A stretch of DNA of 64,000 nt from Candidatus Omnitrophota bacterium (lineage in GTDB: Bacteria > Omnitrophota > Gorgyraeia > Zapsychrales > Fredricksoniimonadaceae). A model generated the notes under the pieces. That model saw only the letters and a list, made by a program, of their open reading frames with translations. It did no database searches and was not told where the DNA came from. Both the position numbers and the translations under genes were made by a program. The DNA is taken from NCBI GenBank assembly GCA_963828495.1, contig CAWHFJ010000022.1:22964-86963 (forward strand), given 5' to 3'. Shown piece after piece: positions 3,792 to 43,210 of the stretch (positions within the stretch are counted from its first letter, which is position 1; each line of letters starts with the position of its first letter).

Positions 3792-4114
3792 TGTCCTCGA
3801 AGGGAAATTTCAGCAAAGCAGATATTTTGGATGGTAAAATGTACGCGGTTTTAGCGTACCTTTCCATCTTTTGTATTGTGCCTTTGATCTTCAGAAAAAA
3901 TAATGCTTTTGTTTTGAGTCATGGACGTCAAGGTTTGGTGCTTTTTGTGGGGGAAGTAGGGGCTTTGATCCTCAGCATTGTTTTTCCCTGGGTGTTGAGG
4001 CCTTTCTTGTTTATCCTTTTCGGATTTTCGTTTTGGGGAATGGTCACGGCCATTCTCGGTCAAGTTGTCGAATTTCCGGTCATTGCCCGTATTGCGGGAA
4101 AAATTACGTTGTAG
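3791..4114 (+). CDS. small integral membrane protein (DUF4870/Tic20-like)
   Basis: 107 aa. Its ATG overlaps the parA-like stop codon (TGATG), suggesting translational coupling. The text YAVLAYLSIFCIVPLIF..N.FV.SHGRQGLVLF resembles DUF4870-type proteins. About 3 TM segments. Confidence 0.5.
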   Translation: MSSKGNFSKADILDGKMYAVLAYLSIFCIVPLIFRKNNAFVLSHGRQGLVLFVGEVGALILSIVFPWVLRPFLFILFGFSFWGMVTAILGQVVEFPVIARIAGKITL

Positions 4115-4202: not shown

Positions 4203-4628
4203 ATGTTCCGTAAAATTGTGAATGTCCTTAAAGAGGTTTTTTGGATTAAACCGTCACGCAAGAAAGCCAAGCCTGCCAAAAAATCCGTCAAGAAATCCGT
4301 CAAGAAATCTGCTATTAAGAAGAAGATTGTCAAGAAAACCCCCCAAGCTCCCTTGAAGGTTAAGGCCCAACAACTGGATCCTTCACTGCGCGAAGCAGGG
4401 GTGATCACCCATTATTTTGATCGTATTAAAGTCTGTGTCGTCAAAGTCACCCAGGGCACTATTTTGATAGGAGATAAGCTTACGATTGTCGGGCCCAAGA
4501 CAAAATTCACCCAGAAGGTTTGGTCTATGCAGATCGAAAGTGAAGATGTCAAGGTTGCCAAGAAGGGGCAGCTTATTGGCCTTAAGGTGGACAAGATTGT
4601 AGCTGTAGGGGATAAGGTGTATAAATGA
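4203..4628 (+). CDS. Lys-rich protein with EF-Tu domain-2-like beta-barrel
   Basis: 141 aa. The N-terminus contains KKSVKKSVKKSAIKKKIVKK, encoded by a 12-nt tandem repeat. The C-terminus GVITHYFDRIKVCVVKV...GDKLTIVG...Q.V.SMQIE...V..A..G..IGLKV resembles 'translation elongation factor-like' small proteins. Confidence 0.5.
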   Translation: MFRKIVNVLKEVFWIKPSRKKAKPAKKSVKKSVKKSAIKKKIVKKTPQAPLKVKAQQLDPSLREAGVITHYFDRIKVCVVKVTQGTILIGDKLTIVGPKTKFTQKVWSMQIESEDVKVAKKGQLIGLKVDKIVAVGDKVYK

Positions 4629-4659
4629 CAAATTGTTTAAAATATGGTATATTTACACT

Positions 4660-4848
4660 ATGAGAGACTGTCAGGGGCAAAATATCATTGAATACGTCCT
4701 GTTCGTGGCCGCGGTGGTGATACTCTGCCTTGTTTTTTTAAAACCGCAAGCAGGTGGCCCCATGCATGATAGCATTAATGCCGCCCTTGGCAGTATGGTC
4801 ACTCAGATCAATAATGGCATAAGCGCAATCCAGTTTAATAGTAATTAA
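4660..4848 (+). CDS. Flp/Fap-type pilin-like protein
   Basis: MRDCQG/QNIIEYVLFVAAVVILCLVFL fits the Flp prepilin motif (G/xxxxEY followed by a hydrophobic helix). The start at 4660 is preferred over the ORF-track start at 4633. Confidence 0.45.
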   Translation: MRDCQGQNIIEYVLFVAAVVILCLVFLKPQAGGPMHDSINAALGSMVTQINNGISAIQFNSN

Positions 4849-4850
4849 TC

Positions 4851-5234
4851 ATGACAAAGAAAACAGCACTTTCTAAAGCCCACAAGGCTTTGGTTTTCCG
4901 TTATCTGCTTTGGGCGTATAAAACAACCAAAGAAAGTTTTGAACGCATTGAACGCAAAACCACGCAGTTGATGGTGGATGAATATATCGCACAGAGGGTG
5001 TCTTCGGAAGAATTTAAGGCTTACATCCAAGCCAAGCGGGCGGATGAATGTAAATTGAAATTTTCCGACGCAGACGGCAAAATTTTGCATCCGCAGTATG
5101 TGTATTTAAAGAAGCGTTTGGCAGCTATTGAAGCGGCGATTAAGTATTTTTTGGGCCCTAAGAAATTGCGTATCATCCAAGCCTTGTATGAAGAGGAATT
5201 TATCCGGCGTATTTTAGAGGCACGGGACCATTAA
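4851..5234 (+). CDS. hypothetical protein
   Basis: 127-aa ORF, helical and charged. I recognise no family. It is tightly packed against the upstream gene. Confidence 0.45.
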   Translation: MTKKTALSKAHKALVFRYLLWAYKTTKESFERIERKTTQLMVDEYIAQRVSSEEFKAYIQAKRADECKLKFSDADGKILHPQYVYLKKRLAAIEAAIKYFLGPKKLRIIQALYEEEFIRRILEARDH

Positions 5235-22259: not shown

Positions 22260-22694
22260 ATGAAACTTGAAATCGCCGACATCCAAAAAATCATTCCGCA
22301 CCGTTTTCCGTTTTTGATGATCGACCGCATCCTGGAATGCCAGCCCAATAAAAAATTGGTGGCTATCAAAAATGTGTCCGTTAATGAGCATTATTTCTCG
22401 GGGCATTTTCCCGGTGAGAAGGTGATGCCCGGGGTTTTGATCATTGAAGCCATGGCCCAGGCCGGTTGTATTTATTTTTATTACAGTAAAAATCTGCAAG
22501 GGAAAAGCCTGATTTATTATCTGGCCAAGACTGAGGCGAGTTTTCATCATCCCGTCATGCCTGGCGATCAGTTGACCATCGAGGTCTCATCGGTCAAATT
22601 ATTACCTAAAGCCGGTTTCATCAACTGCAGGGCCCTTGTCGGTGAAAAATTAGTAGCTGAGGCGAAAATAGGTTTTGGCATTAAAGAAGTATAG
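22260..22694 (+). CDS. fabZ: 3-hydroxyacyl-ACP dehydratase FabZ
   Basis: 144 aa. IQKIIPHRFPFLMIDRI......A.KNVS.NE.YF.GHFPG..VMPGVLIIEAMAQ. Confidence 0.9.
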   Translation: MKLEIADIQKIIPHRFPFLMIDRILECQPNKKLVAIKNVSVNEHYFSGHFPGEKVMPGVLIIEAMAQAGCIYFYYSKNLQGKSLIYYLAKTEASFHHPVMPGDQLTIEVSSVKLLPKAGFINCRALVGEKLVAEAKIGFGIKEV

Positions 22695-22776
22695 TTTTTC
22701 TACAGGAAAGCGCTTCCTCAACACAACCCCCCAGCCCTTGTTTTTCTTATATTTATATGGCATATTTATAGTAAGT

Positions 22777-25700
22777 ATGAGAAAAACCCCATATATCCAT
22801 ATAGCTATTTTGATAGCTTTTCTGGTTAATACGTTTGGGCCGTTACCTATGGCCCAAGCCCAACTGGCCTCACAGGCAAGCGGGGATTTTCGTTTGCCGG
22901 CACCCGGGGTCATGGTTCATTTAAGCCCTAAGTTTAATCCGCCAATCCTTAAAGGTATTAAAGTCCATCCGGACAATCCATTCCGTTTTGATTTTATTTT
23001 AGATCGGGGTGATGCATACAAAGGACCTCAACAAGAACAACTAAAAACCGAAGCCACCAAACTCATCAAATATTTCCTAGCCAGCCTAACTATCCCGGAA
23101 AAAGACTTATGGGTCAATCTAAGCCCTTATGAAAAAGACCGCATTATTCCACAAAGCTTTGGTTTAACCCAGATGGGCAGAGATTTGCTGGCAGAAGATT
23201 ATATGCTCAAGCAGATAACGGCCTCATTGATTTATCCGGAAGACGAGATAGGCAAGAAGTTCTGGCAGCGGGTGTACGCAGAAGCCCAGCAGAAGTTCGG
23301 CACAACCAATATTCCGGTCAATACGTTTAACAAGGTATGGATAGTACCAGAAAAAGCAGTGGTTTATGAAAATGCCAAGGCAGGGACGGCGTATGTAGTG
23401 GAAAGTAAATTAAAGGTGATGTTGGAAGAGGATTATTTATCCATGAGTAAACATGCTGATGTTGGGCAGGTCTCCAACATCAATCGTCTGGGCTCCCAAA
23501 TCATCCGCGAGATTGTCATACCCGAATTAACCAAAGAGGTCAACGAAGACAAAAATTTCACTCAACTGCGACAAGTCTACAACAGCCTTATTCTGGCCAC
23601 ATGGTACAAGAAGAAAGTCAAGGATAGCCTCCTAGCCCAGGTTTATGAGAATAAGAAAAAAGTCGTTGGGGTGGAATATCAATCTCAAACCAACGACGTC
23701 GAAGCTATCTATCAGCGCTATTTACAGGCATTTAGGAAGGGTGTTTATAACTATATTAAAGAAGAACAGGATCCGATCATCAATCAAGCTGTTCCGAGAA
23801 AATATTTTTCCGGGGGAGTGCGATTATCCGATTTAGTCATAAATGCCGACAAAGCCATGCAATATACTCGTAACATACCTTCCAACCCTGAGAATGCCGT
23901 GGAAGTAACAACCGACTTGGCCATGTTAACCGGGCAGGAAGGGGGAGGCTCTTTTTTTGACACAAGCCATCGCTATTATTTGGCATTTAAAGATTTAATC
24001 GATCATATCCCGACTGAAGAAATCAGTAGTCCCCAGAAAGCGATGGAATATTATGATCAACATAAAAACGAATTCCCTTATTTGAGAGACCGCCAGAAGC
24101 CGATGGGAGAACGGGCATCCATCGGGAGGAGTTATTTTGTAGATGTCATCGGCCATCGGGAAGATTTTGATCCGGCTAAACAGTCATCATTTCGAAGTTT
24201 TGCGGCTACTTTAAATTATTACGAACAGTTTCAAGGGATCATTAATGCCATTGCCTCTGTAGAGATCAGCACTCCGCAGAAGGCGATGGAGTATTATGAC
24301 CAACACAAAGCAGATTTTCCTCAAATAGAGGATCGCAATAAGCCAATAGCAGAACAAAAGCCTATTGGTCGGTCGTATTTCATAGGCGTCATCAGCCACC
24401 GCGCAGATTTTGATCGATTAAGACACCAAGATTTTGCGCGTTTTGCAACCAGTCTGCGGTATTACGAAGAGTTTCAAAGCCAAATTGATGCCATCCCGGC
24501 CGCAGACATCAGCAGCCCTGAAAAAACGATGGCCTATTATAATGAGCACAAAGGAGAATTCCCTCAGTTGAATGATAGGATAAAACCGATCTCTGAACAG
24601 CGACCTATTAGTAGGAATTATTTTATAACAGTTCTTACCCATCGGAAAGATTTTGACCAATCTAAACATCAGGCATTTGCGCGTTTTATAATGGGGTTAC
24701 GGTATTACGAAGAATTTCAAAGCAAAATTGATGCCATCCCAGCCGCAGACATCAGTAGTCCTGAGCAGGCCATGGACTATTATGATCGCCACAAGAGAGA
24801 ATTTCCTCAGTTAGAGGATGTCCAGAAGCCGGCTGAAGAACAAACTCCTGTTAGTAGGGGTAATTTTATAGCTATCATCAGCTGGCGGGCAGATTTTGAC
24901 GACACCAAAGAGCAGGCATTTCAGCGTTTTGCCGGTAGCCTGAGGTATTACGAACAGTTTCAAACGATCATTGATGCGATATCCGAAGAAGAAATCAGCA
25001 ATCCTGAGAATGCGATGGAGTATTATGATCAACACAAAAATGCATTTCCTCAACTGGATGATCAGGACAAACCGGTTGCAGAACAAACGCCTATTGGCAG
25101 AGCGTATTTTATAAACGTCATTAGCCATAGAGCCAATTTTGATCAGTCTAGACATCAAACATTTGCACGTTTTGCGGCCAGTTTGCGGTATTACGAAGAG
25201 TTTCAAGAGAAGATTGATGCGATTGCGGCTATAGACATCAGCAGTCCTGAAAAAGCGATGGAGTATTATGATCAGTACAAAGAAGATTTTCCTCAGTTGA
25301 AAGATCTAAACAAGCCGATGGCTCAACAAACACCCATCGGAAGGGCTTATTTTATCAGTGTCATCAGCCACCGCGATGATTTTGACCTGGCCAGAGAACA
25401 GAAATTCGATCGATTTGCCACTAGCTTAAGCTACTACGAAGAGTTTCAAGGCAGGATTGATGCGATTGCGGCTATAGACATCAGCAGTCCTGAAAAAGCG
25501 ATGGAGTATTATGATCAATACAAAGGAGATTTTCCCCAGTTAGACGATCGCCATAAGCCAATGGCCCAACAGACCCCGATCGGTAGGGGTTACTTTATAG
25601 ATGTCATCAGTCATCGTGGCGATTTTGATCAATTAAGGCATCAAGCATTTGTACGTTTTGCGGGTAGTTTGCGGTATTATGAGGAGTTTCAGGAAAGGAT

Positions 25701-28700
25701 CGATGCGATCCCGGCCGCCCAGATCGGCACTCCTGAGGAGGCGATGGCGTATTATAGTCAACACAAGGGAGAATATCCTCGGCTAAACGACCGTAAGAAG
25801 CCTGTTTCACAACGAACCCCCATTAGCTGGGGGTATTTTATAGATATCATCAGCCACCGCAAAGATTTTGACAAAGAAAGTAAATGGAGATTCGAACGTT
25901 TTAAAATGGGTTTGCACTACTATGAAGAATTTAAAGAAAAGATTGATGCCATCCCATCCGCAGAAATCGACAGTCCTAAAAAAGCGATGGAGTATTATGA
26001 TCAACATAAGCAGGAATTCCCTCAGTTAGAGGACCGAAGGAAACCCATTGCAGAACAAACGCCCATCGGCAGGGGTTATTTTGTCAGCATCATCAGCCTT
26101 CGAAAAGATTTAGATAAATTTAAAGAGTCGTTATTTGGACACTTTGCAACCAGTCTAACCTATTACGAAGAGTTTCAAGAGGGCATTGATGCAATCCCCT
26201 TTGGAGATATCAGCACGCCTGAGAAAGCGATGGAGTATTACGATCAGCACAAAGGAGAATTTCCTCAAATTGAAGATCAAGATAAGCCACTGGCAGAACA
26301 AACGCCTATTAGCAGATCGTATTTTATAAACATCATCAACCACAGGACAGACTTTGATCAATCAAAGCATCAAACATTCGTTTTTTTCGCCACTAGTTTG
26401 CGGTATTACGAAGAGTTTCAAGGGGTGATTGATGCCATACCTTCTGAAGATATCAGTACTCCTGAAAAAGTGATGGCGTATTACGATCAACATAAGGGGG
26501 AATTGCCTCAAATAGAAGATCAAAATAAGCCGATGGCAGAACAAGCGCCCATTAGCAGGGCGTATTTCATAAGCGTCATCAGCCATAGAGCAGATTTTGA
26601 TAAATCCAAACATCAGGCATTTGCGCGTTTTGCTACCAGTTTACGGTATTATGAAGAATTTCAAACGGTCATTGATGCGATTGCGGCCAGAGACATCAGC
26701 AGTCCTGAAAAAGCAATGGAGTATTATGATATGCATAAAATGGCATTTCCCATGCTGGAAGATAGGGAAAAACCGGTTGCCCAACAGACTCCGATCAGTA
26801 GGGGCTACTTTATAGATGTCATCGGTCATCGCAGCGATTTTGATAAACAGCGGCAACAGAGTTTTACTCGCTTTGCGAACAGTTTGAATTATTATGAAGA
26901 AAATCAAAATATGACCGATGCTATCCCGACAGAATATATTAGTACTCCGGAAAAAGCCATGGAATATTACGATCAGCATAAGCAGGAATTCCCCCTGCTA
27001 GAGGATCGGGAAAAACCGATAGCAGAACAAACTCCGATAAGCCGGGCTTATTATGTGCAGATTATCAGTCATCGGAAAGATTTTGATAAAGTCAAGCAGA
27101 GGGCATTTACTAATTTTGCGGTCAGTCTGCATTATTATGAATTACATCAAGAGATCATTGATCGCTATGTCAGAGAATTGTTTGTCAATGGACTCCCGCA
27201 GGAGAATGAAGACATGCTGAAGCTGTATTTACAATTAGCCCCCTATTTGTCACGTATAGATAAACCTCAGTTTACTATTTCCATCATTTATTTTAGAGAA
27301 ATTTTGCACGCGGCCCGTCTTATTTCATTGCAAAGATATCAGAGAAGCCAAAAATTTATTGCAGGAGTTCATTACGCTTTAAAGATGCAGGGTAGGATCG
27401 TAGGTCTTTTCAAAGAAGCCTATGGGAAATTGGTTAATCTAAGACAGATGGATTTGGAAGAAGTAAAAGCGCGTGTCTATAAGCTGTTCATAACAGATAT
27501 TAATAGAGGAGGATTAAGAGAGAAGTTCGTGAGGATCAATCGTCCTAAGGGGGCATTAGAGGATAGGCCGCTTTCTCTCTCGATTTTGAAAAGCTATTTG
27601 CCTCCCCTAAAGCTTGTTTATGGAGATCAACTTCTTGAGGCTTTACAGACAGATCAAGTGCCAGAATTTCTGGATGCATTAAAATCAAGGCTGCAAAACA
27701 TAAGGCTGGCTGGCTCTATAGAAGAAGGGGAACAGGAAGATCCGAATGAAGCGATGATTACCGCTCAAGAAAATTTGGAGGGCGTTTCCGGGAAAACCAT
27801 GCCCTTTAAAGATTTTATAAAAAATCAATTGCTGTTAGATTATTGGAAAGTTACGAGACAAGCATTTTTAGCCCACTTTGATAAACAACAGGCAGAACTG
27901 ATCTGGGGCGAATTAAAAGATAAAGGTTATATTAGAAAAGGCACGTTGGAATTTTTTGATGGTGAATTTTCTGAATTTTCAAAGGGTCCATCTAATGAGT
28001 TCATGACGCCGGAGGAGGCGGAGAAAGCCTTAATAGAGGCTATACAAAAAAGTGGCATTGACATTCCCCCTGCTGATACGCCTATTGACTCATTGGCAAA
28101 GTTGATAGAAAGTAGAATTTTATATAAAGCTATGCCCATACGGCCTGATGAAGTTAGTGAGCGAATTAATCGATTAGAACATGGGGGGAAACCATTAAAT
28201 TCTTGGGAGATTAAAGATTTAAACAGGATTCTAATAGAGGCCAACTACTCACAAGCTCCTAAAAGGCTCAATTATGATAGCGTCATTCAGGACGCATTCC
28301 GTGCACTTGAAAATTATTCACAGTTGGATTTGCCTGGAATATCTGATACTCAGAAAAAACAAATTTATGACATTATTCAACAGGCTCATTGGTTTAATAG
28401 GATTGATTTCAAATTAGAGGGCTCATTAAATCTTCATTTTGAGGATGAATCCCAATTTGATGAGTTGACAGTCGTATTAGATGAGGTCATAGCCAATGCG
28501 CTCCAAGCACAAAAAGAAGGGAAGATAAGGATTACTGTTGAGGGGAATAAAATTTTGATACAGAATGATGGTGAAATACCTTGGGATGTTATGCAAAAGA
28601 AATATAATGAACTTATTCGTGAACACGATCTGTATGTGATTCGTCAAGCAGATGGATCCATTGAAGATCTGGGCTCCAAAGATTTTTTCGCCCAATCGTT

Positions 28701-31700
28701 AATTAAATCAAATAAAATTACAGAAGCCACTCAAAAAGACATTGAGGATTTATTTGCCAGTAAAGAGGGGCGGGAGAGATTGTTCTTTGATCATCGAGGG
28801 GTTTCATTTGGACCAAATAAAGGAACAGCCATACAGCGCAATGGTGGCGTGGGTTTGTATATGGCTAAAGCCTATAGTGGATTATTAGGAGCTCAGCTTA
28901 GGATAGCGGATGATGGGAAAGAAACTAGGGGAGTCTCATTAGAGATTGATTTTCTTAATGCATCGCCATTTATTTCTGCACCTTCTGAAGGCAATCCGGC
29001 GATGCTGGCAGAAGTGGCGGAGGAAGGCGTTTCATACGAGATCCCCATTATTGATTTGCTTGGTAATGGTATCGTGCCAGATGCGTATCAAAGGGATTAC
29101 GATGGTACTTTGATGGATATTTTGTTATTTTTTATGGATATAGGACTGAAGAAAAAATCGTTAGCTGTCCCCCCAGTGTCGAATATTTTATTGATAGGCG
29201 GATCAGTGAAGGATGTGGCTATTTTATATAAGCGGTTTCCTAAGGCCATGATCACAGTAGTCAATTTAGACGGACCTTATTTGGCGCAGATCCAGCGGCA
29301 ATATGAAAATAAGCCGGGACATCTATTGCGGTTGTTTCAGGCAGATGCAACGAAGCTTTCTGCTTATCAAACACAAGGCGGGGAATCCTATTTTTCCGAT
29401 GGTATTTTTGATTTGATCGCAGCTCCGGGGGTGGATGAAAGCTGCTTTCCTAAGAATGGCCCGGCGATCTTGCAAAGGATCGCTCAGGAGGAAGTTCGTT
29501 TGGTTAAGAAGGGGGGATTGATCTTACACGATCTTCATGAAGATACTCAGGGATCAATGGGGTATCATAGGGAGGCTATCCAACAAGGAGTCTTGGAGTT
29601 CGTTGGTGATAGCAATGCACATAATATCCCCAGCATTTTTTATAGAACAGACCTTGCGATGCTGGCGCACGTTGGTTATATTGAGGAAGTTTTTCGAAGA
29701 GTCAAGGAGGGCCATAAAGTTACTATTAGCGCAGTCATACCTGATCCCCAAGAGGCGGGAGAATATGAGGTGTTTCTCCATTCCAATCGAGATGGCAGTT
29801 GGAAAACTGACCCCACTCCTTTACAAAAGAGAGAAGAGGATGGGAAAGTCTTTTTTGATGACACGGTCACAGCAGAAAGGAGTTTTCAATACACTTTTGT
29901 ATTTAAAAAGGCCGATGGTACCCAGGTATGGGCAGATAGACCCTACGGAGATGGGCAGGTTTTTGTTGACCGCGATTTCAAAGGCACACTCGTTTTTGCT
30001 GGAATGGAATTTGGACCTTTGGCTAAGAAGGGTGGACAGGCGGATGTTATGTACGAACTGCCACGCAATCTAGTCAGAGGTGGTAATGAAGTGAGGGTTG
30101 TTATTCCCTATTATAAAGAGTTAGCAGAGAAGTATGCCGGTCAAGGATTTAAGATCGAGGATGTTAATGGGATTACAATAAACATTGATTTTAAGCGTCG
30201 AGCTAATGAGATTTTAAAAGTCAAGAAAGTCGTTATTGATGGGATAACGGTGTATATGTTGGATGCGCAAAGCAACGATCTTTTTAGAAAACCGTATCCT
30301 GGTCCCTATGCAGAGTTTTATGAATCGATCCTTTTATCAAGAGGGACCTCAGAACTGTTATATCAATTGAGTCAGAATTTTGGAGACAAAAAACCAGATG
30401 CTGTCGTATTTAGTGATCATCATGCCGCTTTAACGCCTCTTTATATGCATGAAGAGCATCCAGATTTTTATGCTAAAACAGGGAGAGTGTTTACCATCCA
30501 TAATATCGGCTATCAAGGCGAGTATGAAGACACCGGCTTGATCGAAGAGTTTGGCCTGAAACGAACGCCTCAATTAGAGCAGTTAGTCATTCAGTCAGGG
30601 AAATTAAATTTTATGTCTGTACCGCCGGGTCTGGCCGAATTGGAAGGGTATAAAGGCTGGTATGCTGGGACCGTCAGCCCGACCTATGCCAACGAGATCA
30701 GGGGGACTGCATTTCAACTAGATAAGAAATTTCAGAGAATGCAAGAGCATTTTGGGGGTATTTTAAACGGTATTGATTATGAAGTTAATAATCCTGAAAC
30801 TGATCCGTTATTAGCCGAGCTTGCAGTTAGATATCCTGGTTTTGGTTTAAGCAATTATAGTTTAGACAGGGATGGGATTGAAGGCGTGATGGCGGCCAGA
30901 CAAAAATTCAAACATTTTATCCGATTTGTTTTTAGCCATAGCGGAATCCCTGAATGGGAAAGTAAACAAATTACAAAAACCGGGAACTTGGAAGAAAATT
31001 CAAATCATATGTTAGTGGGCATGATTGGCCGCGTGACACAACAAAAGCAGATCGATATTGTGGCTGATATGATCGAAGAAATGGCTAATGGTCAGCGGCC
31101 TAAGATTGGGATCGATTTTTTGCTTGCGGGATCTGGAGATGCGTATACGCAGGATAGTGTGAGACGATTAGAAGGGGTAGCCAAAAGATCTGGAATAGAG
31201 TTTAATACGGTTGTTCTTAACGGATTTATCAGTGAAATGACGGCTAGGTTGATGTATGCCGGATGTGATGTTATTTTGATGCCTTCTGACTTTGAACCCT
31301 CCGGCATAGTACAACAGATTGCCAAACGTTATGGCAGCTTACCGCTGGTTCGCAAGACGGGGGGCTTGGCAGATACGGTTTTTGAAACAGGACAGAATAA
31401 TAATGGTTTTATCTTTACGGGAACATTTCGTAGGATGAATACAGCAGAGGACCCGGCAGCGAGAAGACAGAATACGGATGAATTATATGAAAAAGTTAGA
31501 GAGGCCGATGAAGTTTATCATCAAGATCAAAATCTTTGGCAGACAAAAATGATCAACGGCATGAGGGATAATAGCAGCTGGGATCTGCGCATGCGGGATT
31601 ATTTAAATGTATTTGCTTGGCTGGGTGATCAATTAAATGATAGGGGTATGATCACGCATACAGGTGGTATCGATCTGACCCCTGCCAATATGAATTTGCA

Positions 31701-31875
31701 GACTCAAAATAACGGCGGCTCAATCCAATTCCATCTTGACTCCGCACAACTGCAGCAGCTACAAAACGCTTCCGGCTTTGTGCCGGTTATTATCAATATC
31801 CAGCCGATGACGAATCTTAGGGTGTTTTTGGGCTTGACGGATAATCCAGTTGTTGACGCCGTCGCATCGGGCTGA
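22777..31875 (+). CDS. giant (3,032-aa) multidomain protein carrying a complete GT5 glycogen/starch synthase
   Basis: Single uninterrupted ORF. Domain order:
- Signal-like start MRKTPYIHIAILIAFLVNTFGPLPMAQA/Q.
- Conserved N-domain (about 22860-23900).
- 13 x 81-aa repeats (23974-27132).
- GHKL-like module (about 28400-28960: EVIANALQA, IQNDGEI, GGVGLYMAKAYSGLLGAQL).
- Rossmann module (about 29180-29540: NILLIGGS...FDLIAAPG).
- CBM-like domain (about 29718-29975).
- GT5 domain (about 29985-31620: KKGGQADV, FTIHNIGYQG, TVSPTYANEI, GILNGID, FEPSGIVQQIA..YGSLPLVRKTGGLADTV).
The ORF-track start at 22675 (TTG, overlapping fabZ) is less likely. Confidence 0.85.
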   Translation: MRKTPYIHIAILIAFLVNTFGPLPMAQAQLASQASGDFRLPAPGVMVHLSPKFNPPILKGIKVHPDNPFRFDFILDRGDAYKGPQQEQLKTEATKLIKYFLASLTIPEKDLWVNLSPYEKDRIIPQSFGLTQMGRDLLAEDYMLKQITASLIYPEDEIGKKFWQRVYAEAQQKFGTTNIPVNTFNKVWIVPEKAVVYENAKAGTAYVVESKLKVMLEEDYLSMSKHADVGQVSNINRLGSQIIREIVIPELTKEVNEDKNFTQLRQVYNSLILATWYKKKVKDSLLAQVYENKKKVVGVEYQSQTNDVEAIYQRYLQAFRKGVYNYIKEEQDPIINQAVPRKYFSGGVRLSDLVINADKAMQYTRNIPSNPENAVEVTTDLAMLTGQEGGGSFFDTSHRYYLAFKDLIDHIPTEEISSPQKAMEYYDQHKNEFPYLRDRQKPMGERASIGRSYFVDVIGHREDFDPAKQSSFRSFAATLNYYEQFQGIINAIASVEISTPQKAMEYYDQHKADFPQIEDRNKPIAEQKPIGRSYFIGVISHRADFDRLRHQDFARFATSLRYYEEFQSQIDAIPAADISSPEKTMAYYNEHKGEFPQLNDRIKPISEQRPISRNYFITVLTHRKDFDQSKHQAFARFIMGLRYYEEFQSKIDAIPAADISSPEQAMDYYDRHKREFPQLEDVQKPAEEQTPVSRGNFIAIISWRADFDDTKEQAFQRFAGSLRYYEQFQTIIDAISEEEISNPENAMEYYDQHKNAFPQLDDQDKPVAEQTPIGRAYFINVISHRANFDQSRHQTFARFAASLRYYEEFQEKIDAIAAIDISSPEKAMEYYDQYKEDFPQLKDLNKPMAQQTPIGRAYFISVISHRDDFDLAREQKFDRFATSLSYYEEFQGRIDAIAAIDISSPEKAMEYYDQYKGDFPQLDDRHKPMAQQTPIGRGYFIDVISHRGDFDQLRHQAFVRFAGSLRYYEEFQERIDAIPAAQIGTPEEAMAYYSQHKGEYPRLNDRKKPVSQRTPISWGYFIDIISHRKDFDKESKWRFERFKMGLHYYEEFKEKIDAIPSAEIDSPKKAMEYYDQHKQEFPQLEDRRKPIAEQTPIGRGYFVSIISLRKDLDKFKESLFGHFATSLTYYEEFQEGIDAIPFGDISTPEKAMEYYDQHKGEFPQIEDQDKPLAEQTPISRSYFINIINHRTDFDQSKHQTFVFFATSLRYYEEFQGVIDAIPSEDISTPEKVMAYYDQHKGELPQIEDQNKPMAEQAPISRAYFISVISHRADFDKSKHQAFARFATSLRYYEEFQTVIDAIAARDISSPEKAMEYYDMHKMAFPMLEDREKPVAQQTPISRGYFIDVIGHRSDFDKQRQQSFTRFANSLNYYEENQNMTDAIPTEYISTPEKAMEYYDQHKQEFPLLEDREKPIAEQTPISRAYYVQIISHRKDFDKVKQRAFTNFAVSLHYYELHQEIIDRYVRELFVNGLPQENEDMLKLYLQLAPYLSRIDKPQFTISIIYFREILHAARLISLQRYQRSQKFIAGVHYALKMQGRIVGLFKEAYGKLVNLRQMDLEEVKARVYKLFITDINRGGLREKFVRINRPKGALEDRPLSLSILKSYLPPLKLVYGDQLLEALQTDQVPEFLDALKSRLQNIRLAGSIEEGEQEDPNEAMITAQENLEGVSGKTMPFKDFIKNQLLLDYWKVTRQAFLAHFDKQQAELIWGELKDKGYIRKGTLEFFDGEFSEFSKGPSNEFMTPEEAEKALIEAIQKSGIDIPPADTPIDSLAKLIESRILYKAMPIRPDEVSERINRLEHGGKPLNSWEIKDLNRILIEANYSQAPKRLNYDSVIQDAFRALENYSQLDLPGISDTQKKQIYDIIQQAHWFNRIDFKLEGSLNLHFEDESQFDELTVVLDEVIANALQAQKEGKIRITVEGNKILIQNDGEIPWDVMQKKYNELIREHDLYVIRQADGSIEDLGSKDFFAQSLIKSNKITEATQKDIEDLFASKEGRERLFFDHRGVSFGPNKGTAIQRNGGVGLYMAKAYSGLLGAQLRIADDGKETRGVSLEIDFLNASPFISAPSEGNPAMLAEVAEEGVSYEIPIIDLLGNGIVPDAYQRDYDGTLMDILLFFMDIGLKKKSLAVPPVSNILLIGGSVKDVAILYKRFPKAMITVVNLDGPYLAQIQRQYENKPGHLLRLFQADATKLSAYQTQGGESYFSDGIFDLIAAPGVDESCFPKNGPAILQRIAQEEVRLVKKGGLILHDLHEDTQGSMGYHREAIQQGVLEFVGDSNAHNIPSIFYRTDLAMLAHVGYIEEVFRRVKEGHKVTISAVIPDPQEAGEYEVFLHSNRDGSWKTDPTPLQKREEDGKVFFDDTVTAERSFQYTFVFKKADGTQVWADRPYGDGQVFVDRDFKGTLVFAGMEFGPLAKKGGQADVMYELPRNLVRGGNEVRVVIPYYKELAEKYAGQGFKIEDVNGITINIDFKRRANEILKVKKVVIDGITVYMLDAQSNDLFRKPYPGPYAEFYESILLSRGTSELLYQLSQNFGDKKPDAVVFSDHHAALTPLYMHEEHPDFYAKTGRVFTIHNIGYQGEYEDTGLIEEFGLKRTPQLEQLVIQSGKLNFMSVPPGLAELEGYKGWYAGTVSPTYANEIRGTAFQLDKKFQRMQEHFGGILNGIDYEVNNPETDPLLAELAVRYPGFGLSNYSLDRDGIEGVMAARQKFKHFIRFVFSHSGIPEWESKQITKTGNLEENSNHMLVGMIGRVTQQKQIDIVADMIEEMANGQRPKIGIDFLLAGSGDAYTQDSVRRLEGVAKRSGIEFNTVVLNGFISEMTARLMYAGCDVILMPSDFEPSGIVQQIAKRYGSLPLVRKTGGLADTVFETGQNNNGFIFTGTFRRMNTAEDPAARRQNTDELYEKVREADEVYHQDQNLWQTKMINGMRDNSSWDLRMRDYLNVFAWLGDQLNDRGMITHTGGIDLTPANMNLQTQNNGGSIQFHLDSAQLQQLQNASGFVPVIINIQPMTNLRVFLGLTDNPVVDAVASG
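23974..27132 (+). repeat. in-frame tandem array, 13 units of exactly 243 nt (81 aa)
   Basis: The unit phase marker TAT-TAY (YY of YYEEFQ) recurs at 23974, 24217, 24460 ... 26890, 27133, always 243 nt apart. Consensus: YYEEFQxxIDAIPAxDISSPEKAMEYYDQHKxEFPQLEDRxKPxAEQTPIGRxYFIxVISHRxDFDxxKHQAFARFAxSLR. Confidence 0.9.
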
Positions 31876-34572: not shown

Positions 34573-35097
34573 ATGGTTAATGCGATACGGTACAAAAGGG
34601 AGGTGTTCCTCCTGATGGGGATTCTGGTGTTAAGCATGTCTTTGAGTTCATGTGAAACATTGCGTAAGAAATTCACCCGTCATAAAAAACAGGCGGAAGA
34701 AGATCAAAGTGTTATTCCGGTCCTCGAACCCGAAGAATACCCATCGCCGGAACATAACCCCCAACAAAATTATCAAGGGCATTATGATCTGATCAAGGCC
34801 TGGTACAATGATCTGTGGAGCGCCCTTCATGATAAAAGTTCTGAAAAATATCTCCATTATATTATTGGGGAAGTCGCTAATCATATTACGGCCATGCAAA
34901 AATTAGTGGACGCTCCCACGCAGGCGGATTTAGTGAAGTTGAACGGTTTTCTGGATTATTACAGATCTTCTTTGGATGACCCGTGGCCTGCGCGTAATGT
35001 GTCGCGCATTGAAAGCGATTTGCGTGCTTTTGACCGCTTTCTACGCCACTATTTGCGTGCGGACAAGATCCAAGGGCATTTTGTTAAAGCCAACTGA
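34573..35097 (+). CDS. lipoprotein, hypothetical
   Basis: Signal peptide with lipobox LSMSLSS/C. No recognisable family. Confidence 0.5.
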   Translation: MVNAIRYKREVFLLMGILVLSMSLSSCETLRKKFTRHKKQAEEDQSVIPVLEPEEYPSPEHNPQQNYQGHYDLIKAWYNDLWSALHDKSSEKYLHYIIGEVANHITAMQKLVDAPTQADLVKLNGFLDYYRSSLDDPWPARNVSRIESDLRAFDRFLRHYLRADKIQGHFVKAN

Positions 35098-35984
35098 TGA
35101 AAGCATTTATCGATGAGTTCATGAATTATATGTCCGTCGAACGCGGGCTGGCCTCAAACACCCTTTTAGCCTACCGGCGTGACCTTAATAAGTACACGGA
35201 TTATCTTTCCCAAAAAGGTATTCAATCCTCAGCGAAGGTCACTCGTGAACATGTGGCTTCGTTTATGTTCGATTTAAAAAAACAGAACATGTCGGCCACC
35301 AGCATTTGCCGGAATTTGGCAGCGGTCAAAATGTTCCACCGTTTTTTATTACGGGAAAATTTAGCCGAAGCCGACCCGACCACCTTGGTGGACACTCCGA
35401 AATTGTGGCAACGCATGCCATCGGTGTTAACTCAAAGTGAAATCGAAGCTATGATCAAGGCCGCCTCGGGCAAAAAGTCTCAGCAGATCAGGGACCAGGC
35501 CATATTGGAGATTTTTTATGCCAGCGGCCTGCGGGTTTCCGAATTAGCGGATTTAAAGACCACCAGCGTTAATTTTGATGCGGGTTTTGTGCGGGCGGTG
35601 GGCAAGGGCAGCAAAGAGCGGATCATTCCTCTGGGGAAAAAAGCCAGGGACGCTTTACAGAAATATTTGGACCATGTGCGTCCTAAATTATTAAAAGGAC
35701 AAACGAGCGATGTTTTGTTTTTAAGCCGTTTAGGCAAAAGGATCAGCCGCCAGAGCTTATGGGCGGTGATTAAATTTTATGCGCGAAAGGCCAATATAAA
35801 GAAAACAATTAAACCGCATACTTTGCGTCACACCTTTGCCACGCATTTATTGGAACACGGAGCGGATTTGCGTTCTGTTCAGGAAATGTTGGGGCATGCG
35901 GACATTGCTACGACCCAGATTTATACGCATGTGGACCGGGAACGGTTAAAGATCGTGCATAAACAGTTTCATCCCAGGGGCTAG
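35097..35984 (+). CDS. xerD: site-specific tyrosine recombinase XerD
   Basis: 295 aa. ...ERGLASNTLLAYRRDL... N-terminus, catalytic R...HTLRHTFATHLLEHGADLRSVQEMLGHADIATTQIYTHV. Confidence 0.75.
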   Translation: MKAFIDEFMNYMSVERGLASNTLLAYRRDLNKYTDYLSQKGIQSSAKVTREHVASFMFDLKKQNMSATSICRNLAAVKMFHRFLLRENLAEADPTTLVDTPKLWQRMPSVLTQSEIEAMIKAASGKKSQQIRDQAILEIFYASGLRVSELADLKTTSVNFDAGFVRAVGKGSKERIIPLGKKARDALQKYLDHVRPKLLKGQTSDVLFLSRLGKRISRQSLWAVIKFYARKANIKKTIKPHTLRHTFATHLLEHGADLRSVQEMLGHADIATTQIYTHVDRERLKIVHKQFHPRG

Positions 35985-39673: not shown

Positions 39674-40359
39674 GTTCTGCGACTATAGAAAATTCACTGC
39701 AAGGCATTATGCTGGTTAACAAACCTTTGGGCATCACGTCTCACGACGTGGTGGCCACGGTCCGCCGTAAGTTTAAAATACGACGCGTAGGGCATGCGGG
39801 TACGCTTGACCCTTTGGCTACCGGCGTGCTGGTTATTTTGCTAGGCAAGTCCACCCGGCTTTTTGATAAATTTGTGGCTTTTGATAAATCCTACCGGGCG
39901 ACTTTGCGCTTAGGTGTCAAGACTACAACTGCGGATATCATGGGGCAGGTATTATTGGAAAGGCCGTATGCGGACATTGACGAGACAAAGATTAAGGATG
40001 TTTTCGCGCGTTTTACCGGTGCCCTCGAGCAAAAGCCGCCCATGGTTTCCGCGGTCAAGTATAAAGGAGAGCGTTTGTATAAAATAGCCCGCCAGGGCAA
40101 GGAAGTACAACGTGCGGCTCGCAAGATTCGTATCGATGAATTAAGGATTTTGCAATGCCGTCTGCCTGATGTGGAATTTTTGATGAGTTGCTCGAAAGGG
40201 ACTTATGTGCGCCAATTAGCCGAGGATGTGGGGGAAGTTTTAGGCTGCGGAGCGTGTATTGCCCAAATCGAACGCATTAAGGTCGGCCCTTTTGAAATAC
40301 AAGATGCTGTGATGTTGAAAGATCTCAATGAAAGTCATATCCTTAAATGGCCGCTCTAA
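39670..40359 (+). CDS. truB: tRNA pseudouridine(55) synthase
   Basis: GIMLVNKPLGITSHDVV...R......KVGHAGTLDPLATGVL.ILLGK.TRL. Confidence 0.9.
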   Translation: MSSATIENSLQGIMLVNKPLGITSHDVVATVRRKFKIRRVGHAGTLDPLATGVLVILLGKSTRLFDKFVAFDKSYRATLRLGVKTTTADIMGQVLLERPYADIDETKIKDVFARFTGALEQKPPMVSAVKYKGERLYKIARQGKEVQRAARKIRIDELRILQCRLPDVEFLMSCSKGTYVRQLAEDVGEVLGCGACIAQIERIKVGPFEIQDAVMLKDLNESHILKWPL

Positions 40360-41254
40360 ACTGCATTTGAAAAAGACCTGTGTAGCCATCGGTATTTTCG
40401 ACGGGATGCACTGCGGGCATCGGTATTTGATCCAACAGATGCTATCGACGGCCCAACGCCTTAGCGCCCAACCTATAGTGATGACTTTTTTCCCCCATCC
40501 GGTCCATGTGTTGCGGCCCGATGTGAAATTGGCGTATTTATCTTCGTTACGGGACCGTTTGAGTGTGTTGGATGATTGGGGTGTGAAGGTTTGTTTGGTG
40601 GTACGTTTTAATCTTCGGTTTGCCCACATCGATCCGCAGAAATTTATTAAAAATATTTTAGTTGAAAAATTAGGGGTTAAAGCGGTGTTTGTCGGTGAGG
40701 ATTTTCATTTTGGTAAGGATAGACGCGGGGATATTGCTTTGTTTCAAAAACTGAGTGCCCTATACGGCTATGAAATGCATGCGGTGCCTCAGCTTAAACA
40801 GGGGAGAATGATTATCAGCAGCACGCGTATACGCCAATTGGTGCGTGAAGGCCAACTAAACCAGGCCGCGCGCCTGTTAGGCCGCGGCGTGTCTGTTTCC
40901 GGGACTGTAGTAAAAGGCTCACAGCGCGGTAAGAGCTTGGGTTATCCAACAGCCAATATCGCGTATGAGGCGGACATTCTTCCGCCGCAGGGGGTGTATA
41001 TCGTTCGCGCCTTGCTTGGCAAAAAAAGTTATCCCGCTATAGCCGATATAGGCACACGGCCTTCGTTTGAAAAACAGAATTCTCAATTGTATCTGGAAGT
41101 CTATATCCTTGATTTTTCCAGGGATATTTATGGTCAGCACATGCAGGTGGAATTTTTGAAGAAAATCCGCAATGAAAAGACCTTCGCCAGTCCTCAAAAT
41201 TTGATCCGTCAAATCCAAAAAGACGAATCCCTCTCCCGCAGATACTTCGCTTAA
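40328..41254 (+). CDS. ribF: bifunctional riboflavin kinase / FAD synthetase
   Basis: 308 aa. AIGIFDGMHCGHRYLI, then the kinase half G.V..G...G..LGYPTANI. Confidence 0.9.
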   Translation: MKVISLNGRSKLHLKKTCVAIGIFDGMHCGHRYLIQQMLSTAQRLSAQPIVMTFFPHPVHVLRPDVKLAYLSSLRDRLSVLDDWGVKVCLVVRFNLRFAHIDPQKFIKNILVEKLGVKAVFVGEDFHFGKDRRGDIALFQKLSALYGYEMHAVPQLKQGRMIISSTRIRQLVREGQLNQAARLLGRGVSVSGTVVKGSQRGKSLGYPTANIAYEADILPPQGVYIVRALLGKKSYPAIADIGTRPSFEKQNSQLYLEVYILDFSRDIYGQHMQVEFLKKIRNEKTFASPQNLIRQIQKDESLSRRYFA

Positions 41255-41278
41255 AACTATTGCACGTGTCTATTCGGC

Positions 41279-41748
41279 CATTGTATTTCCTTCTCAGGCA
41301 CGCTCGCCCATCGAGCTGAAAACTATTATGTATTCGGCACGGAATATTTTCGCCGTTTGCTTCGGTTTACATCAAAAATATTCTAAAGATTCTCTTCATT
41401 TGGAATATTTTTGATGTAAAGCCTCGCAAACATTTGGCGAGAAATTCCTTATTGTGCCTCACACATAATAGCTTTTCAGCTCTAGACGCGTGCATTGTAA
41501 GGGATAAATTTGTTCTTTGAAGCGACACTGTCGATTTTAGCCAAAGCAGCTCATGCTTCGAGGGAATCCCGAGGCTTTTAGGCCGAGGGATGGCTGAACT
41601 TGTTTGAGCCTTCAGCTTCCAGAGAAGCTGAAGGCGAGTTGTTCAGCCACCGAAGAAGCATGAGACCTTTGGCGTTAAAAAATCGACCAGTGAAGCGAAA
41701 AGAATAAATTTATTCCTTACAATGCGTGCCTGAGAAGGAAATACAATG
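41279..41748 (+). repeat. 470-nt nested inverted-repeat element (MITE-like or structured RNA), non-coding
   Basis: Perfect 25-nt outer arms CATTGTATTTCCTTCTCAGGCACGC (41279-41303) and their reverse complement (41724-41748) enclose two long imperfect hairpins, at 41313-41482 and 41488-41729. No credible ORF inside. Confidence 0.7.
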
Positions 41749-41793
41749 TCCTCATAAACTTGGAAAGGACTTGGAAAGAACCTATTTTGTGTA

Positions 41794-41822
41794 TTGACAA
41801 GGCCTTTAGCGAGGTTTATACT
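41794..41822 (+). promoter_or_regulatory. sigma70-type promoter of the dcw cluster (Pmra-like)
   Basis: TTGACA (41794-41799), 17-nt spacer, TATACT (41817-41822), about 40 nt upstream of the mraZ ATG. Confidence 0.55.
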
Positions 41823-41830
41823 TGCCATTA

Positions 41831-41860
41831 AGTGGAGTAAAGTGGAGGAAGGTGGAGTAA
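41831..41860 (+). promoter_or_regulatory. three 10-nt-phased GTGGAG direct repeats, putative MraZ operator
   Basis: aGTGGAGtaa / aGTGGAGgaa / gGTGGAGtaa are contiguous and end at the mraZ ATG. Position and phasing match the known MraZ-box layout. Confidence 0.45.
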
Positions 41861-42301
41861 ATGTTTTACGGTGAATACAGTCATGGTATTGACAATAAAG
41901 GCCGTTTGATTTTGCCTGCCCGGTTTCGCGAGGTGGCCCGTGAAAACGGCATTGAGAAGTTTTTTGTCACCCGCGGCTTGGATAAATGTATTTTTATGTT
42001 CGCGGAAGGCGAATGGCGTATGCAGGAGCAGCGGTTTAAGAACCTCCCCTTTACCAAAGGGGAGGCGCGTTCTTTTAACCGTATGTTTTTCTCCGGTGCC
42101 GTCGAAGTGTCGCCCGATAAACAGGGGCGTTTCATTATCCCTCAGTATCTGAAAGATTTTGCCGGCATCAAAAAAGATGCGGTGGTCATAGGCATTTCCA
42201 ATCGTATCGAAATTTGGGAAACGGCTTTGTGGCGGGAATTCTTTAGTAAATCCAGCGGGGATTTTGAGAAAACCGCGGAACATATGCTGGATGTGGATTA
42301 A
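41861..42301 (+). CDS. mraZ: transcriptional regulator MraZ
   Basis: 146 aa. MFYGEYSHGIDNKGRLILPARFRE... plus a second SpoVT/AbrB-like repeat ...VSPDKQGRFIIPQYL. Confidence 0.9.
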   Translation: MFYGEYSHGIDNKGRLILPARFREVARENGIEKFFVTRGLDKCIFMFAEGEWRMQEQRFKNLPFTKGEARSFNRMFFSGAVEVSPDKQGRFIIPQYLKDFAGIKKDAVVIGISNRIEIWETALWREFFSKSSGDFEKTAEHMLDVD

Positions 42302-42303
42302 AC

Positions 42304-43210
42304 ATGGCAACTGGCGATGACGTCCATATACCCGTCATGCCCAAGCAGGCTCTTGAATTATTGCGTTTGCCTGTCGGTGGGGTGGCGGTCGACGGGACAT
42401 TGGGTTTAGCCGGACACGCTGTGTTGATGGCCCAGGCACTGGGAGTGCACGGGCATTTGATTGGCATAGACCGCGACAGCGCCTCTTTGGCGCAGGCTAA
42501 AATACGGTTGGCTTCTCTGGGCTTAAGGGTTGATTTGTTGCAGGGGAGCTTTAGTAGCCTTGATCAAATTTTGATTACACTTCAAGTTAGCGCTGTCGAC
42601 GGAATTCTTTTAGATTTGGGGATATCGAGTTTTCAGCTGGATGATCAAAGTCGCGGGTTCGCCTTTAGATATGACGGACCTCTGGATATGAGGATGGACC
42701 CCGATGGCGGGTGCTCCAACAGCCGCGGATTTGGTCAATACTCTTAAAGAAGCCCAGCTTGAAGACATGATCAGTGAATTTGGCGAAGAACGCTTCGCCA
42801 GAAGGATTGCCGCGGCCATTGTAATGAACAGAGCCCAGGCGAAGATTACGACCACAAAAGCTTTGGCGGATATTATTTTGCGCGCTTTGCCTCATGGTTA
42901 TACGCGCGGGCGTATTCATCCGGCGACCAGGACATTTCAGGCCCTGCGTATCGCCGTTAACGAGGAATTGGAAGTTTTGGCTCAAGGGTTGGATGTGTGC
43001 TTCAAGGCACTTAAAAGCGGCGGGCGGCTATGTGTGATTTCATTTCATTCTCTGGAAGACCGCCTTGTGAAAAATAAATTTCGCGCCTGGGGCATGGCTG
43101 ACGAAGGCATAATTTTGACTAAAAAGCCTTTGGTGGCTGATAACCAGGAGTGTACGCATAACCCACGCAGCCGTAGCGCTAAGATGCGAGTCATTGAAAG
43201 GGTTCGATGA
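42304..43210 (+). pseudogene. rsmH: 16S rRNA (cytosine1402-N4)-methyltransferase RsmH, frame-disrupted (1 shift at about 42700-42745)
   Basis: HIPVM..E.L......G...D.T.G.GGH......LIGIDRD (42304-42747), then ...AADLVN.....L..I...GEERFA..IA..IV..R....ITTT..L...I... and SFHSLEDR.VK (42704-43210). Confidence 0.85.

Follow-up and report, generated by a model that had tools for sequence, protein, structure and literature searches.

The window, i.e., the whole 64,000-nucleotide (nt) stretch of Candidatus Omnitrophota DNA that was analyzed (contig CAWHFJ010000022.1 of assembly GCA_963828495.1), carries a cluster of long inverted repeats in the 606-nt spacer that separates ribF from mraZ, which a first-pass annotation had described as one non-coding element of 470 nt built from three nested helices. 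The feature is instead a patchwork of three kinds of hairpin-forming repeat, called here X, P2core and P3: its helices come from different families, and the two outer arms each represent one and the same terminus of repeat X. On the upstream flank, ribF (40328-41254, + strand) encodes the bifunctional riboflavin kinase/FAD synthetase, as indicated by Pfam matches on an identical protein (FAD_syn and Flavokinase) and by homologues; its stop codon is provided by a P2L-like shell fragment, GCTTAAAACTATTGCACGT (41249-41267, + strand), a direct repeat of 41315-41327 at 92%, and this motif also stands 5' of X at the related loci L025 and L006. Next come the left outer arm (41268-41308, + strand), which is the left terminus of X ("X-left") and ends after GCACGCTCGCC; P2 (41309-41487, + strand), a shell hairpin (41309-41338 and 41456-41487) around the 117-nt P2core (41339-41455), which is recognized through further copies with covarying stems; P3 (41488-41729, + strand), a rod-like repeat of about 240 nt whose shell arms (41488-41518 and 41699-41729) enclose a core (41519-41698) that includes a side hairpin and a 12-base-pair (bp) tip, supported by 12 distinct copies and an nhmmer score of 251 bits; and the right outer arm (41724-41759, - strand), a second X-left terminus in inverted orientation. 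The downstream flank is mraZ (41861-42301, + strand; Pfam MraZ, E = 3e-38).

Regarding its geometry, the outer inverted repeat spans 41268-41303 and 41724-41759 (36 nt, 89% complementary) and includes the perfect 25-nt core reported at first (41279-41303 and 41724-41748); a 24-mer of this core has two sites only in the 64 kb, with a chance expectation of 0.00. Two long hairpins, P2 and P3, lie between the arms. The P2 arm segments are 76-85% complementary, in line with the initial estimate of about 80%, and the description of P3 holds as well: its basal helix, 27 nt at 93% (41492-41518 and 41699-41725), reads directly from the sequence as 31 bp, of which exactly four are not Watson-Crick pairs and each of these is G.U on the + strand, as stated, and above it are an inner helix, GGCTGAAC (41592-41599) with GTTCAGCC (41641-41648), and the tip (41608-41635), which is perfect. 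The hexamer GCGTGC at 41724-41729 does have alternative partners, namely GCACGC at 41298-41303, perfectly, in the outer stem, or GCGTGC at 41488-41493, with two G.U pairs, in P3; a GCRYGC hexamer is found at each module junction of the window (41262, 41298, 41488 and 41724). The computed fold has an energy of -259.9 kcal/mol on the + strand (z = -21.4 versus shuffled sequence) and of -250.6 kcal/mol on the - strand (z = -19.6).

As for coding content, the two short open reading frames (ORFs) within the region have no Pfam match, in agreement with the earlier view that no credible ORF is present; a type I toxin-antitoxin system, considered in view of small toxin-like ORFs, was discarded, the peptide length not being conserved between copies. 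Rfam covariance models at gathering thresholds, a check proposed at the outset, found no match in the window or in L001, L002 and L009-L011, and in E-value mode the window and related loci gave only chance-level matches of the miRNA-type, long-hairpin noise. Neither promoter nor terminator was found inside the repeat cluster, the module borders showed by inspection no convincing match to dif/Xer-like 28-mers, and no further long inverted repeat of like kind exists within the 64 kb, the cluster being the only one in the window.

Repeat X is a rod of about 160 nt whose small side hairpin carries an invariant CAGC loop; among the constant blocks are TTCGCTAGTC and CTACTACCTTCGAAGAAAACACAATG, and complete copies have two dissimilar ends (left ...CATTGTATTTCCTTCTCAGGCACGCTCGCC..., right ...CTACTACCTTCGAAGAAAACACAATG...). 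With the nhmmer profile of X, both window arms match its 5' end, at positions 2-46 and 2-36, on opposite strands. Since the two arms are the same X end and the ends of complete X differ, the arms are not the termini of one element, and the window holds two truncated X copies head to head. The left arm has the same sequence as the beginning of full-length X in L010, L025 and other loci; the right arm (41724-41759) can be aligned to that end of the complete L001 X which faces the promoter, recurs in L004, where the contig ends inside it, and is the remnant of an X that is complete at this position in L001 and L012. The perfect 25-nt identity of the arms is unremarkable because the block recurs verbatim across the X family; the 21-mer of X-left within the arm core was the search pattern, and its invariance across copies is by construction, but three further bases of the 24-mer core, which were not selected for, are also unchanged in many copies.

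These findings bear on the first candidate explanation, i.e., a single MITE (miniature inverted-repeat transposable element) of 470 nt, bounded by terminal inverted repeats of 25 nt and derived from one insertion in front of the dcw promoter. A perfect terminal inverted repeat, an intergenic position without ORF, an empty spacer in a relative and the short X-terminal fragment that also follows P3 on its 3' side in three other contexts (L031, L024 and L053) would suit such an element. A second copy of the whole unit is, however, absent from the 447 kb of related DNA and from the collections that were scanned, its interior consists of independently dispersed repeats, its arms are two X-left ends, the right one left over from a longer copy, and no target-site duplication is demonstrable for it, making this explanation highly improbable. 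What survives of the MITE proposal is the presence of dispersed, non-coding hairpin repeats that were acquired relative to a repeat-free relative, and for this reason it comes closest among the three candidates first put forward (MITE, structured RNA and cruciform site); the single 470-nt unit does not survive.

The search for further copies, also proposed at first, had the corresponding outcome: the unit as a whole is found nowhere else, and its modules recur in about 40 (X), 12 (P3) and 6 (P2core) contexts. The X-left 21-mer is present in three Candidatus Omnitrophota metagenome-assembled genomes (MAGs), where its loci have no relation to ribF-mraZ, and in 51 stretches of metagenomes sampled from peat, bog and freshwater, the figure for X referring to distinct flanking contexts over MAG and metagenome matches. 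Four long contigs have two separate 21-mer loci each (L023 and L031, L013 and L058, L022 and L054, L038 and L052), and BLAST and nhmmer detected second clusters inside single loci, e.g., L028, L038 and L058; the density on long contigs is roughly one cluster per 50-100 kb. The genes between neighboring copies are housekeeping genes only, such as mnmG, cysK and a helicase, with no mobile-element genes, and the viral contigs scanned for X and for the P2core loop gave no match. X copies stand 0-25 nt from stop or start codons, and their orientation with respect to the neighbor genes is mixed (24 convergent versus 14 co-directional, by crude ORF calls).

P2core and P3 are separate repeat families, in line with the earlier view that the two interior hairpins are unrelated. 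The copies of P2core (L009/L030, L018, L034, L045 and L051) have an invariant apical loop, TTCTAAAGATTCTCTTCATTTGGAA, atop covarying stems that differ completely from one copy to another. P3 has constant loop blocks (AGCGAC, TTTTTAGCC, CACCGA and GGCGTTAARAAA) and a shell of two alternative types, also covarying. By BLAST and nhmmer, the three families occur at separate loci and in varying combinations, with one recurrent arrangement: all 14 near-full P3 matches that have a near-full X nearby (within 200 nt) follow X on the same strand at a distance of 12-51 nt, in about 10 contexts. Copies are often truncated or nested; X is found between P3-type shell arms in L010, L031, L038 and L055, and between P2 shell arms in L025, L031 and L002. 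In the orthologous pair L018/L036 the hairpin core of X has been swapped. An additional small palindrome, about 55 nt long (ATTCCCTGTTCCTTGCT...AGCAAG.AACAGGGGAT), takes the place of internal X hairpins or interrupts them in the copies of L021/L024, L036, L041/L043/L053, L047/L048 and L040/L042; in the L018/L036 pair it is present in L036 only.

The same spacer was compared in strains and relatives. The loci L001-L006 encode a MraZ that is 100% identical to that of the window, yet the sequence between ribF and mraZ differs. The order in L001 and L012 is ribF, P3 in opposite orientation, a complete X of about 160 nt and the mraZ promoter; in L002 a fragment of X-left comes first, followed by P3, the P2 right arm, a complete X and the P2 left arm, these last four being inverted. 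P3, together with P2R, is thus inverted in strains that share the MraZ protein of the window. L002 is an isomer of the canonical P2L-X-P2R-P3 unit (seen in L025 and L031) with a terminal inverted X-left, flipped between the X-left copies; therefore, these inverted repeats mediate inversion over evolutionary time. A rival reading is an inverton, in which the 25-36-nt inverted repeats would be the sites where a site-specific recombinase drives a programmed inversion switch in front of the dcw promoter. In its favor are the segment flanked by inverted repeats, whose interior is opposite in L002 and L001 with respect to the window, and the tyrosine recombinase gene at 35097-35984; nevertheless, the mraZ promoter (41794-41822) lies outside the repeats and none lies inside, the recombinase, the only one in reach, is Xer-like and has the same syntenic position in relatives devoid of the repeats, strains differ in module content and not in orientation alone, and the same repeats occur at dozens of unrelated loci. 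A programmed switch is accordingly very doubtful.

The repeats also shape the end of ribF, the 3' end of which is made of repeat sequence and varies by strain (L001 3458-3473; L019, reverse strand, about 704-686; L002 3325-3347). The protein ends with ...RRYFA* in the window and with ...RRYFCKG* in L001, where the last codons and the stop are inside a P3-type shell arm, and in L002 ribF continues through the P2L-like fragment. Short-read assemblies break exactly at the cluster because it consists of repeats: contigs of the same strain end inside X-left (L007 and L008 at 41295) and inside P3 (L003 and L005 from 41659). Two other short-read contigs of this strain, L067 and L068, end near window positions ~1568 and ~4146, which may reflect further repeats or strain variation in the spacers 1459-2041 and 4408-4851; no long inverted repeat was seen in these two spacers.

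Among the relatives without the repeats, L066 is the closest (RibF 84% identical), and its 143-nt spacer consists of a terminator and the same mraZ promoter region as in the window. The terminator is a canonical intrinsic one directly after ribF (L066 1238-1290), GGGGACAC-TTTAAA-GTGTCCTC followed by TTTTT; nothing like it exists between ribF and mraZ in the window, and none of the three large hairpins of the window is followed by the T-run that an intrinsic terminator for ribF would have. Homology of the window with the repeat-free relatives restarts at 41775. By this comparison, the repeats would occupy the place of a former ribF terminator, which in L066 versus the window is replaced and not simply interrupted by a clean insertion. 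L063 (76% identical) has a 121-nt spacer with a solo 24-nt X-terminal fragment, GAGAAACACAATGTCCTCATAAGC (3937-3962), beside the mraZ promoter, and the spacer of L065 contains another gene and another kind of palindrome, with AATGTCCTCATAG, similar to the L063 fragment, 5' of mraZ; these fragments are either scars of earlier occupancy or the mark of a favored insertion point. The 606-nt spacer of the window is therefore the derived state.

The variability of the locus bears in turn on a DNA structural site specific to this position, such as a cruciform or a signal for replication or segregation. The high degree of self-complementarity that both strands show agrees with this idea; the content, though, differs between near-identical strains and is absent in relatives, the modules are found at many unrelated loci, and arms 420 nt apart are not known to extrude as a cruciform. 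Nothing specific supports the cruciform site named among the initial candidates, and a structural site of any of these types is extremely improbable.

Taken together, the cluster is likely a mosaic of at least three families of non-coding, hairpin-forming interspersed repeats that reside in the intergenic spacers of an Omnitrophota lineage, and the best reading is that these are non-autonomous, similar to repetitive extragenic palindromic (REP) sequences and bacterial interspersed mosaic elements (BIMEs) or to MITEs, and rearranged as inverted copies recombined with each other. The cluster is more likely to be selfish DNA, or DNA that is carried along passively, than a dedicated RNA gene. The proposed sequence of events would be as follows: the cluster took the place of the intrinsic terminator of ribF that the nearest repeat-free relative retains, and later reshuffling would have involved both recombination of inverted copies and swaps of hairpin cores. 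The families would propagate or persist through a folded single strand, with single-stranded DNA (ssDNA) likelier and RNA possible, and propagation of this type would explain compensated helices alongside some constant loops and termini, as known from REP/REPIN/BIME systems and palindromic MITEs. At this locus, RNA reading through from ribF would fold into very stable hairpins (-260 kcal/mol), which could shield the ribF 3' end or hinder transcription from running on into the dcw operon, which has its own promoter; the cluster probably has side effects only.

Several points weigh against this mosaic of mobile repeats. No transposase, REP-associated tyrosine transposase (RAYT) or other partner gene was found in the 447 kb of loci, where tblastn with IS200 TnpA and E. 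coli RAYT queries, a weak test, gave nothing, and where no long element with X-type ends is present. Neither a target-site duplication nor, for any one module, a clean empty/filled pair was found; the flanks of X show no direct repeat, and given that the constant termini TATTCGG...CCGAATA have TA at both start and end, a TA duplication is indistinguishable from the inverted repeat. Mobility is inferred from distribution precisely because partner gene, target-site duplication and clean empty/filled pair were not found, and the 64-kb window itself has this one cluster, the copies having been counted in related MAGs and metagenomes. A terminator-replacing or insulating effect at the locus is something that we purely infer. 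Finally, conserved loops and covarying helices would also fit functional RNAs, and the same is true of energy: in 29 of 29 copies of X the reverse strand folds more stably, by ~17 kcal/mol, and in 12 of 12 copies of P3 the window + strand does, likewise by ~17 kcal/mol.

These last observations lead to an alternative that regards P2core, P3 and the reverse strand of X (X*) as multi-copy, structured non-coding RNAs (ncRNAs), i.e., new Omnitrophota RNA families whose function resides in the conserved loops; the window would then have one P3 gene, one P2core gene and fragments of X. Its support includes the strong covariation, which had been proposed as a check and is evident: double compensatory changes affect 19 of the 48 consensus pairs of X, with very few pairs broken, and 43 of the 81 of P3, together with conserved unpaired blocks. 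Such covariation is what a structured ncRNA would display, and palindromic DNA repeats give the same signal. In REPINs (REP doublets forming hairpins), which occur in clusters, compensatory change is a known signature that has been ascribed to the hairpin in ssDNA or in mRNA (PMC3116915). The energy asymmetry of each copy and the four G.U pairs in the P3 basal helix of the window add to the case for RNA, as do the conserved wobble positions of X. The raw counts of G.U versus A.C cells looked striking at first, with 73 versus 6 for X and 43 versus 8 for P3. As proof of RNA, this strand-specific bias collapses to a few inherited columns: the frequent wobble columns are 3 versus 0 for X, reading G.U only on X*, and 3 versus 4 for P3, while columns with sporadic mismatches show no strand bias (6 versus 7 for X, 16 versus 10 for P3). 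The inference originally drawn from the G.U pairs of the window, that they weakly favor a plus-strand RNA structure, has for this reason little weight.

Other data also disagree with ncRNA genes. The copies are dozens, in both orientations to genes and abutting stop or start codons, and they are frequently truncated, nested or altered by core swapping; internal promoters and terminators are missing, no Rfam family matches, and X and P3 prefer opposite strands within the fixed doublet. Helices of 25-30 nearly perfect bp would moreover be substrates of RNase III. Accordingly, of the structured-RNA candidate of the first-pass annotation the covariation is retained, whereas copy number, mixed orientation, truncation and the lack of both promoter and terminator oppose it, and ncRNA genes are an unlikely explanation. 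A retron does not apply either, as the neighbor genes include no adjacent reverse transcriptase, and a hammerhead-like motif in X (CUGAGA...GAAA) was set aside, being by inspection without stem II. It is concluded that the folded single strand matters for these families, and that ssDNA during propagation is a more economical explanation than RNA.

A further possibility goes beyond the mosaic of REP- or MITE-like repeats and regards X, P2core and P3 not as decaying remains but as long-lived, strand-specific folded elements, with conserved loops, covarying rods and a fixed, head-to-head X-P3 doublet; they would be hairpin-directed replicators that lack a recognizable RAYT or insertion-sequence partner and that insert into other hairpins or swap their tips, or else they would be a new class of multi-copy structured RNA. 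This proposal is speculative, with a small chance of being right.

As for known systems, the likeness of the repeat mosaic to REP, REPIN and BIME sequences (PMC3116915, PMC2817692, PMC3333891, PMC1525189) covers extragenic position, no coding capacity, hairpin formation, conserved ends with compensated stems, inverted doublets, mosaic clusters of alternating orientation with short linkers, location just 3' of genes, where they are often transcribed as 3' untranslated regions, and attraction of other insertions. Inverted doublets, conserved ends and compensatory stems are all found in the Omnitrophota families; a short GC-rich unit of 20-40 nt with a GTAG or CGTC tag and hundreds of copies, as in REPs, is not. 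The Omnitrophota units are rods of 117-240 nt, unlike REPs of 20-40 nt and REPINs of ~70-110 nt, with side branches and with internal loops that are conserved; their density of copies appears to be lower, a RAYT gene was not found, a clear GTAG/CGTC tag is missing (GTAGTAG is present inside X, but not as a terminal tag), and the phylum is different.

The palindromic MITEs (Correia/NEMIS, ERIC/IRU, RUP and BOX, some of them nested) share with these repeats a non-coding length of 100-250 nt, inverted termini, long hairpins, an intergenic position near or overlapping gene ends, internal insertions that create size variants, and presence that varies by strain; as in TA-targeting MITEs, the termini begin and end with TA. 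The differences are that no parent insertion sequence was found, that a target-site duplication is not demonstrable, that copies have diverged with compensatory changes instead of being near-identical young amplifications, and that cores are exchanged within constant shells. Palindrome-associated transposable elements (PATEs) derived from IS200/IS605 and other ssDNA-hairpin systems, such as integron attC sites, offer a third comparison, because recognition of a folded strand would explain why complementarity is kept, as well as the missing target-site duplications and the strand asymmetry; unlike in IS200/IS605, no Y1 transposase or TnpB is nearby (again a weak test), Rfam has no omega-RNA or HEARO match, and the opposite preferred strands of X and P3 in the doublet differ from IS200/IS605 left and right ends. 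Finally, the flanking inverted repeats and a segment in both orientations among strains recall invertons, which the cluster does not resemble in having no inner promoter and no dedicated invertase, in its varying content and in the genome-wide dispersal of its repeats. Membership in the REP/REPIN/BIME or MITE families cannot be claimed, because unit length, density, the missing partner or duplication, and the phylum differ; by analogy, the mode of working would be most like theirs.

The Omnitrophota, an uncultivated phylum with compact genomes, have hairpin repeats of a REP/BIME-like type, and the literature searched contained no account of such repeats in this phylum. These repeats can overwrite a terminator, give ribF its stop codons and C-terminal residues, and be reshuffled between near-identical strains, so they are useful as strain markers and are a source of local rearrangement; the annotation of the locus should read repeat cluster in place of RNA gene or dcw regulatory leader. 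If it is true that selection on the folded strand maintains the modules without a known transposase, they would provide a tractable case for the persistence of replicators.

Between the cluster and mraZ, two tandem 11-mers, ACTTGGAAAGG and ACTTGGAAAGA (41758-41779, + strand, a direct repeat), stand just 5' of the -35 region; they are partly retained in L001 and absent from L002, L006 and L066. The mraZ/dcw promoter, TTGACA-17-TATACT (41794-41822, + strand), is outside the cluster, has 11 of 12 matches and is conserved in all strains. Three GTGGAG boxes, AAGTGGAGTA, AAGTGGAGGA and AGGTGGAGTA (41830-41859, + strand), also outside the cluster, are direct repeats with a period of 10 nt between the -10 element and the mraZ start codon, the last one overlapping the ribosome-binding site; they are kept in all relatives examined (L001, L002, L063, L065 and L066), with an extra GGAAGG unit in L066. 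Given their resemblance to the operator boxes of E. coli and mycoplasmas, we take them to be candidate MraZ operator repeats.

Regarding the neighbor genes, the ribF side comprises a polyA polymerase-like gene, rbfA, a DHH phosphoesterase, truB and ribF, and the mraZ side comprises mraZ, rsmH, an ftsL-like gene, a penicillin-binding protein and murE. The recombinase at 35097-35984 is of the XerC/XerD type (Pfam Phage_integrase with a SAM-like N-terminal domain) and lies 5' of the polyA polymerase-like gene, the same syntenic position that it has in L063-L065; it is probably the housekeeping enzyme. The rsmH gene (MraW methylase) is split in the window into two overlapping ORFs, 42304-42747 and 42704-43210, which cover Pfam positions 3-131 and 133-308, while in L003, which is 99.8% identical, it is intact (301 aa); the split is either a frameshift or an assembly error. 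Elsewhere among the Omnitrophota loci, unrelated long palindromic intergenic sequences were noticed at L010 541-700, L065 5040-5140 and L017 about 3355-3500, one of them with the motif TCATCCTGAGCCCTAAGGGCGAAGGATC, and there seem to be several hairpin-repeat families in these genomes. The ORFs of the window are nearly all on the + strand with very short spacers between them, and positions 22675-31875 are occupied by a single ORF of 3066 aa.

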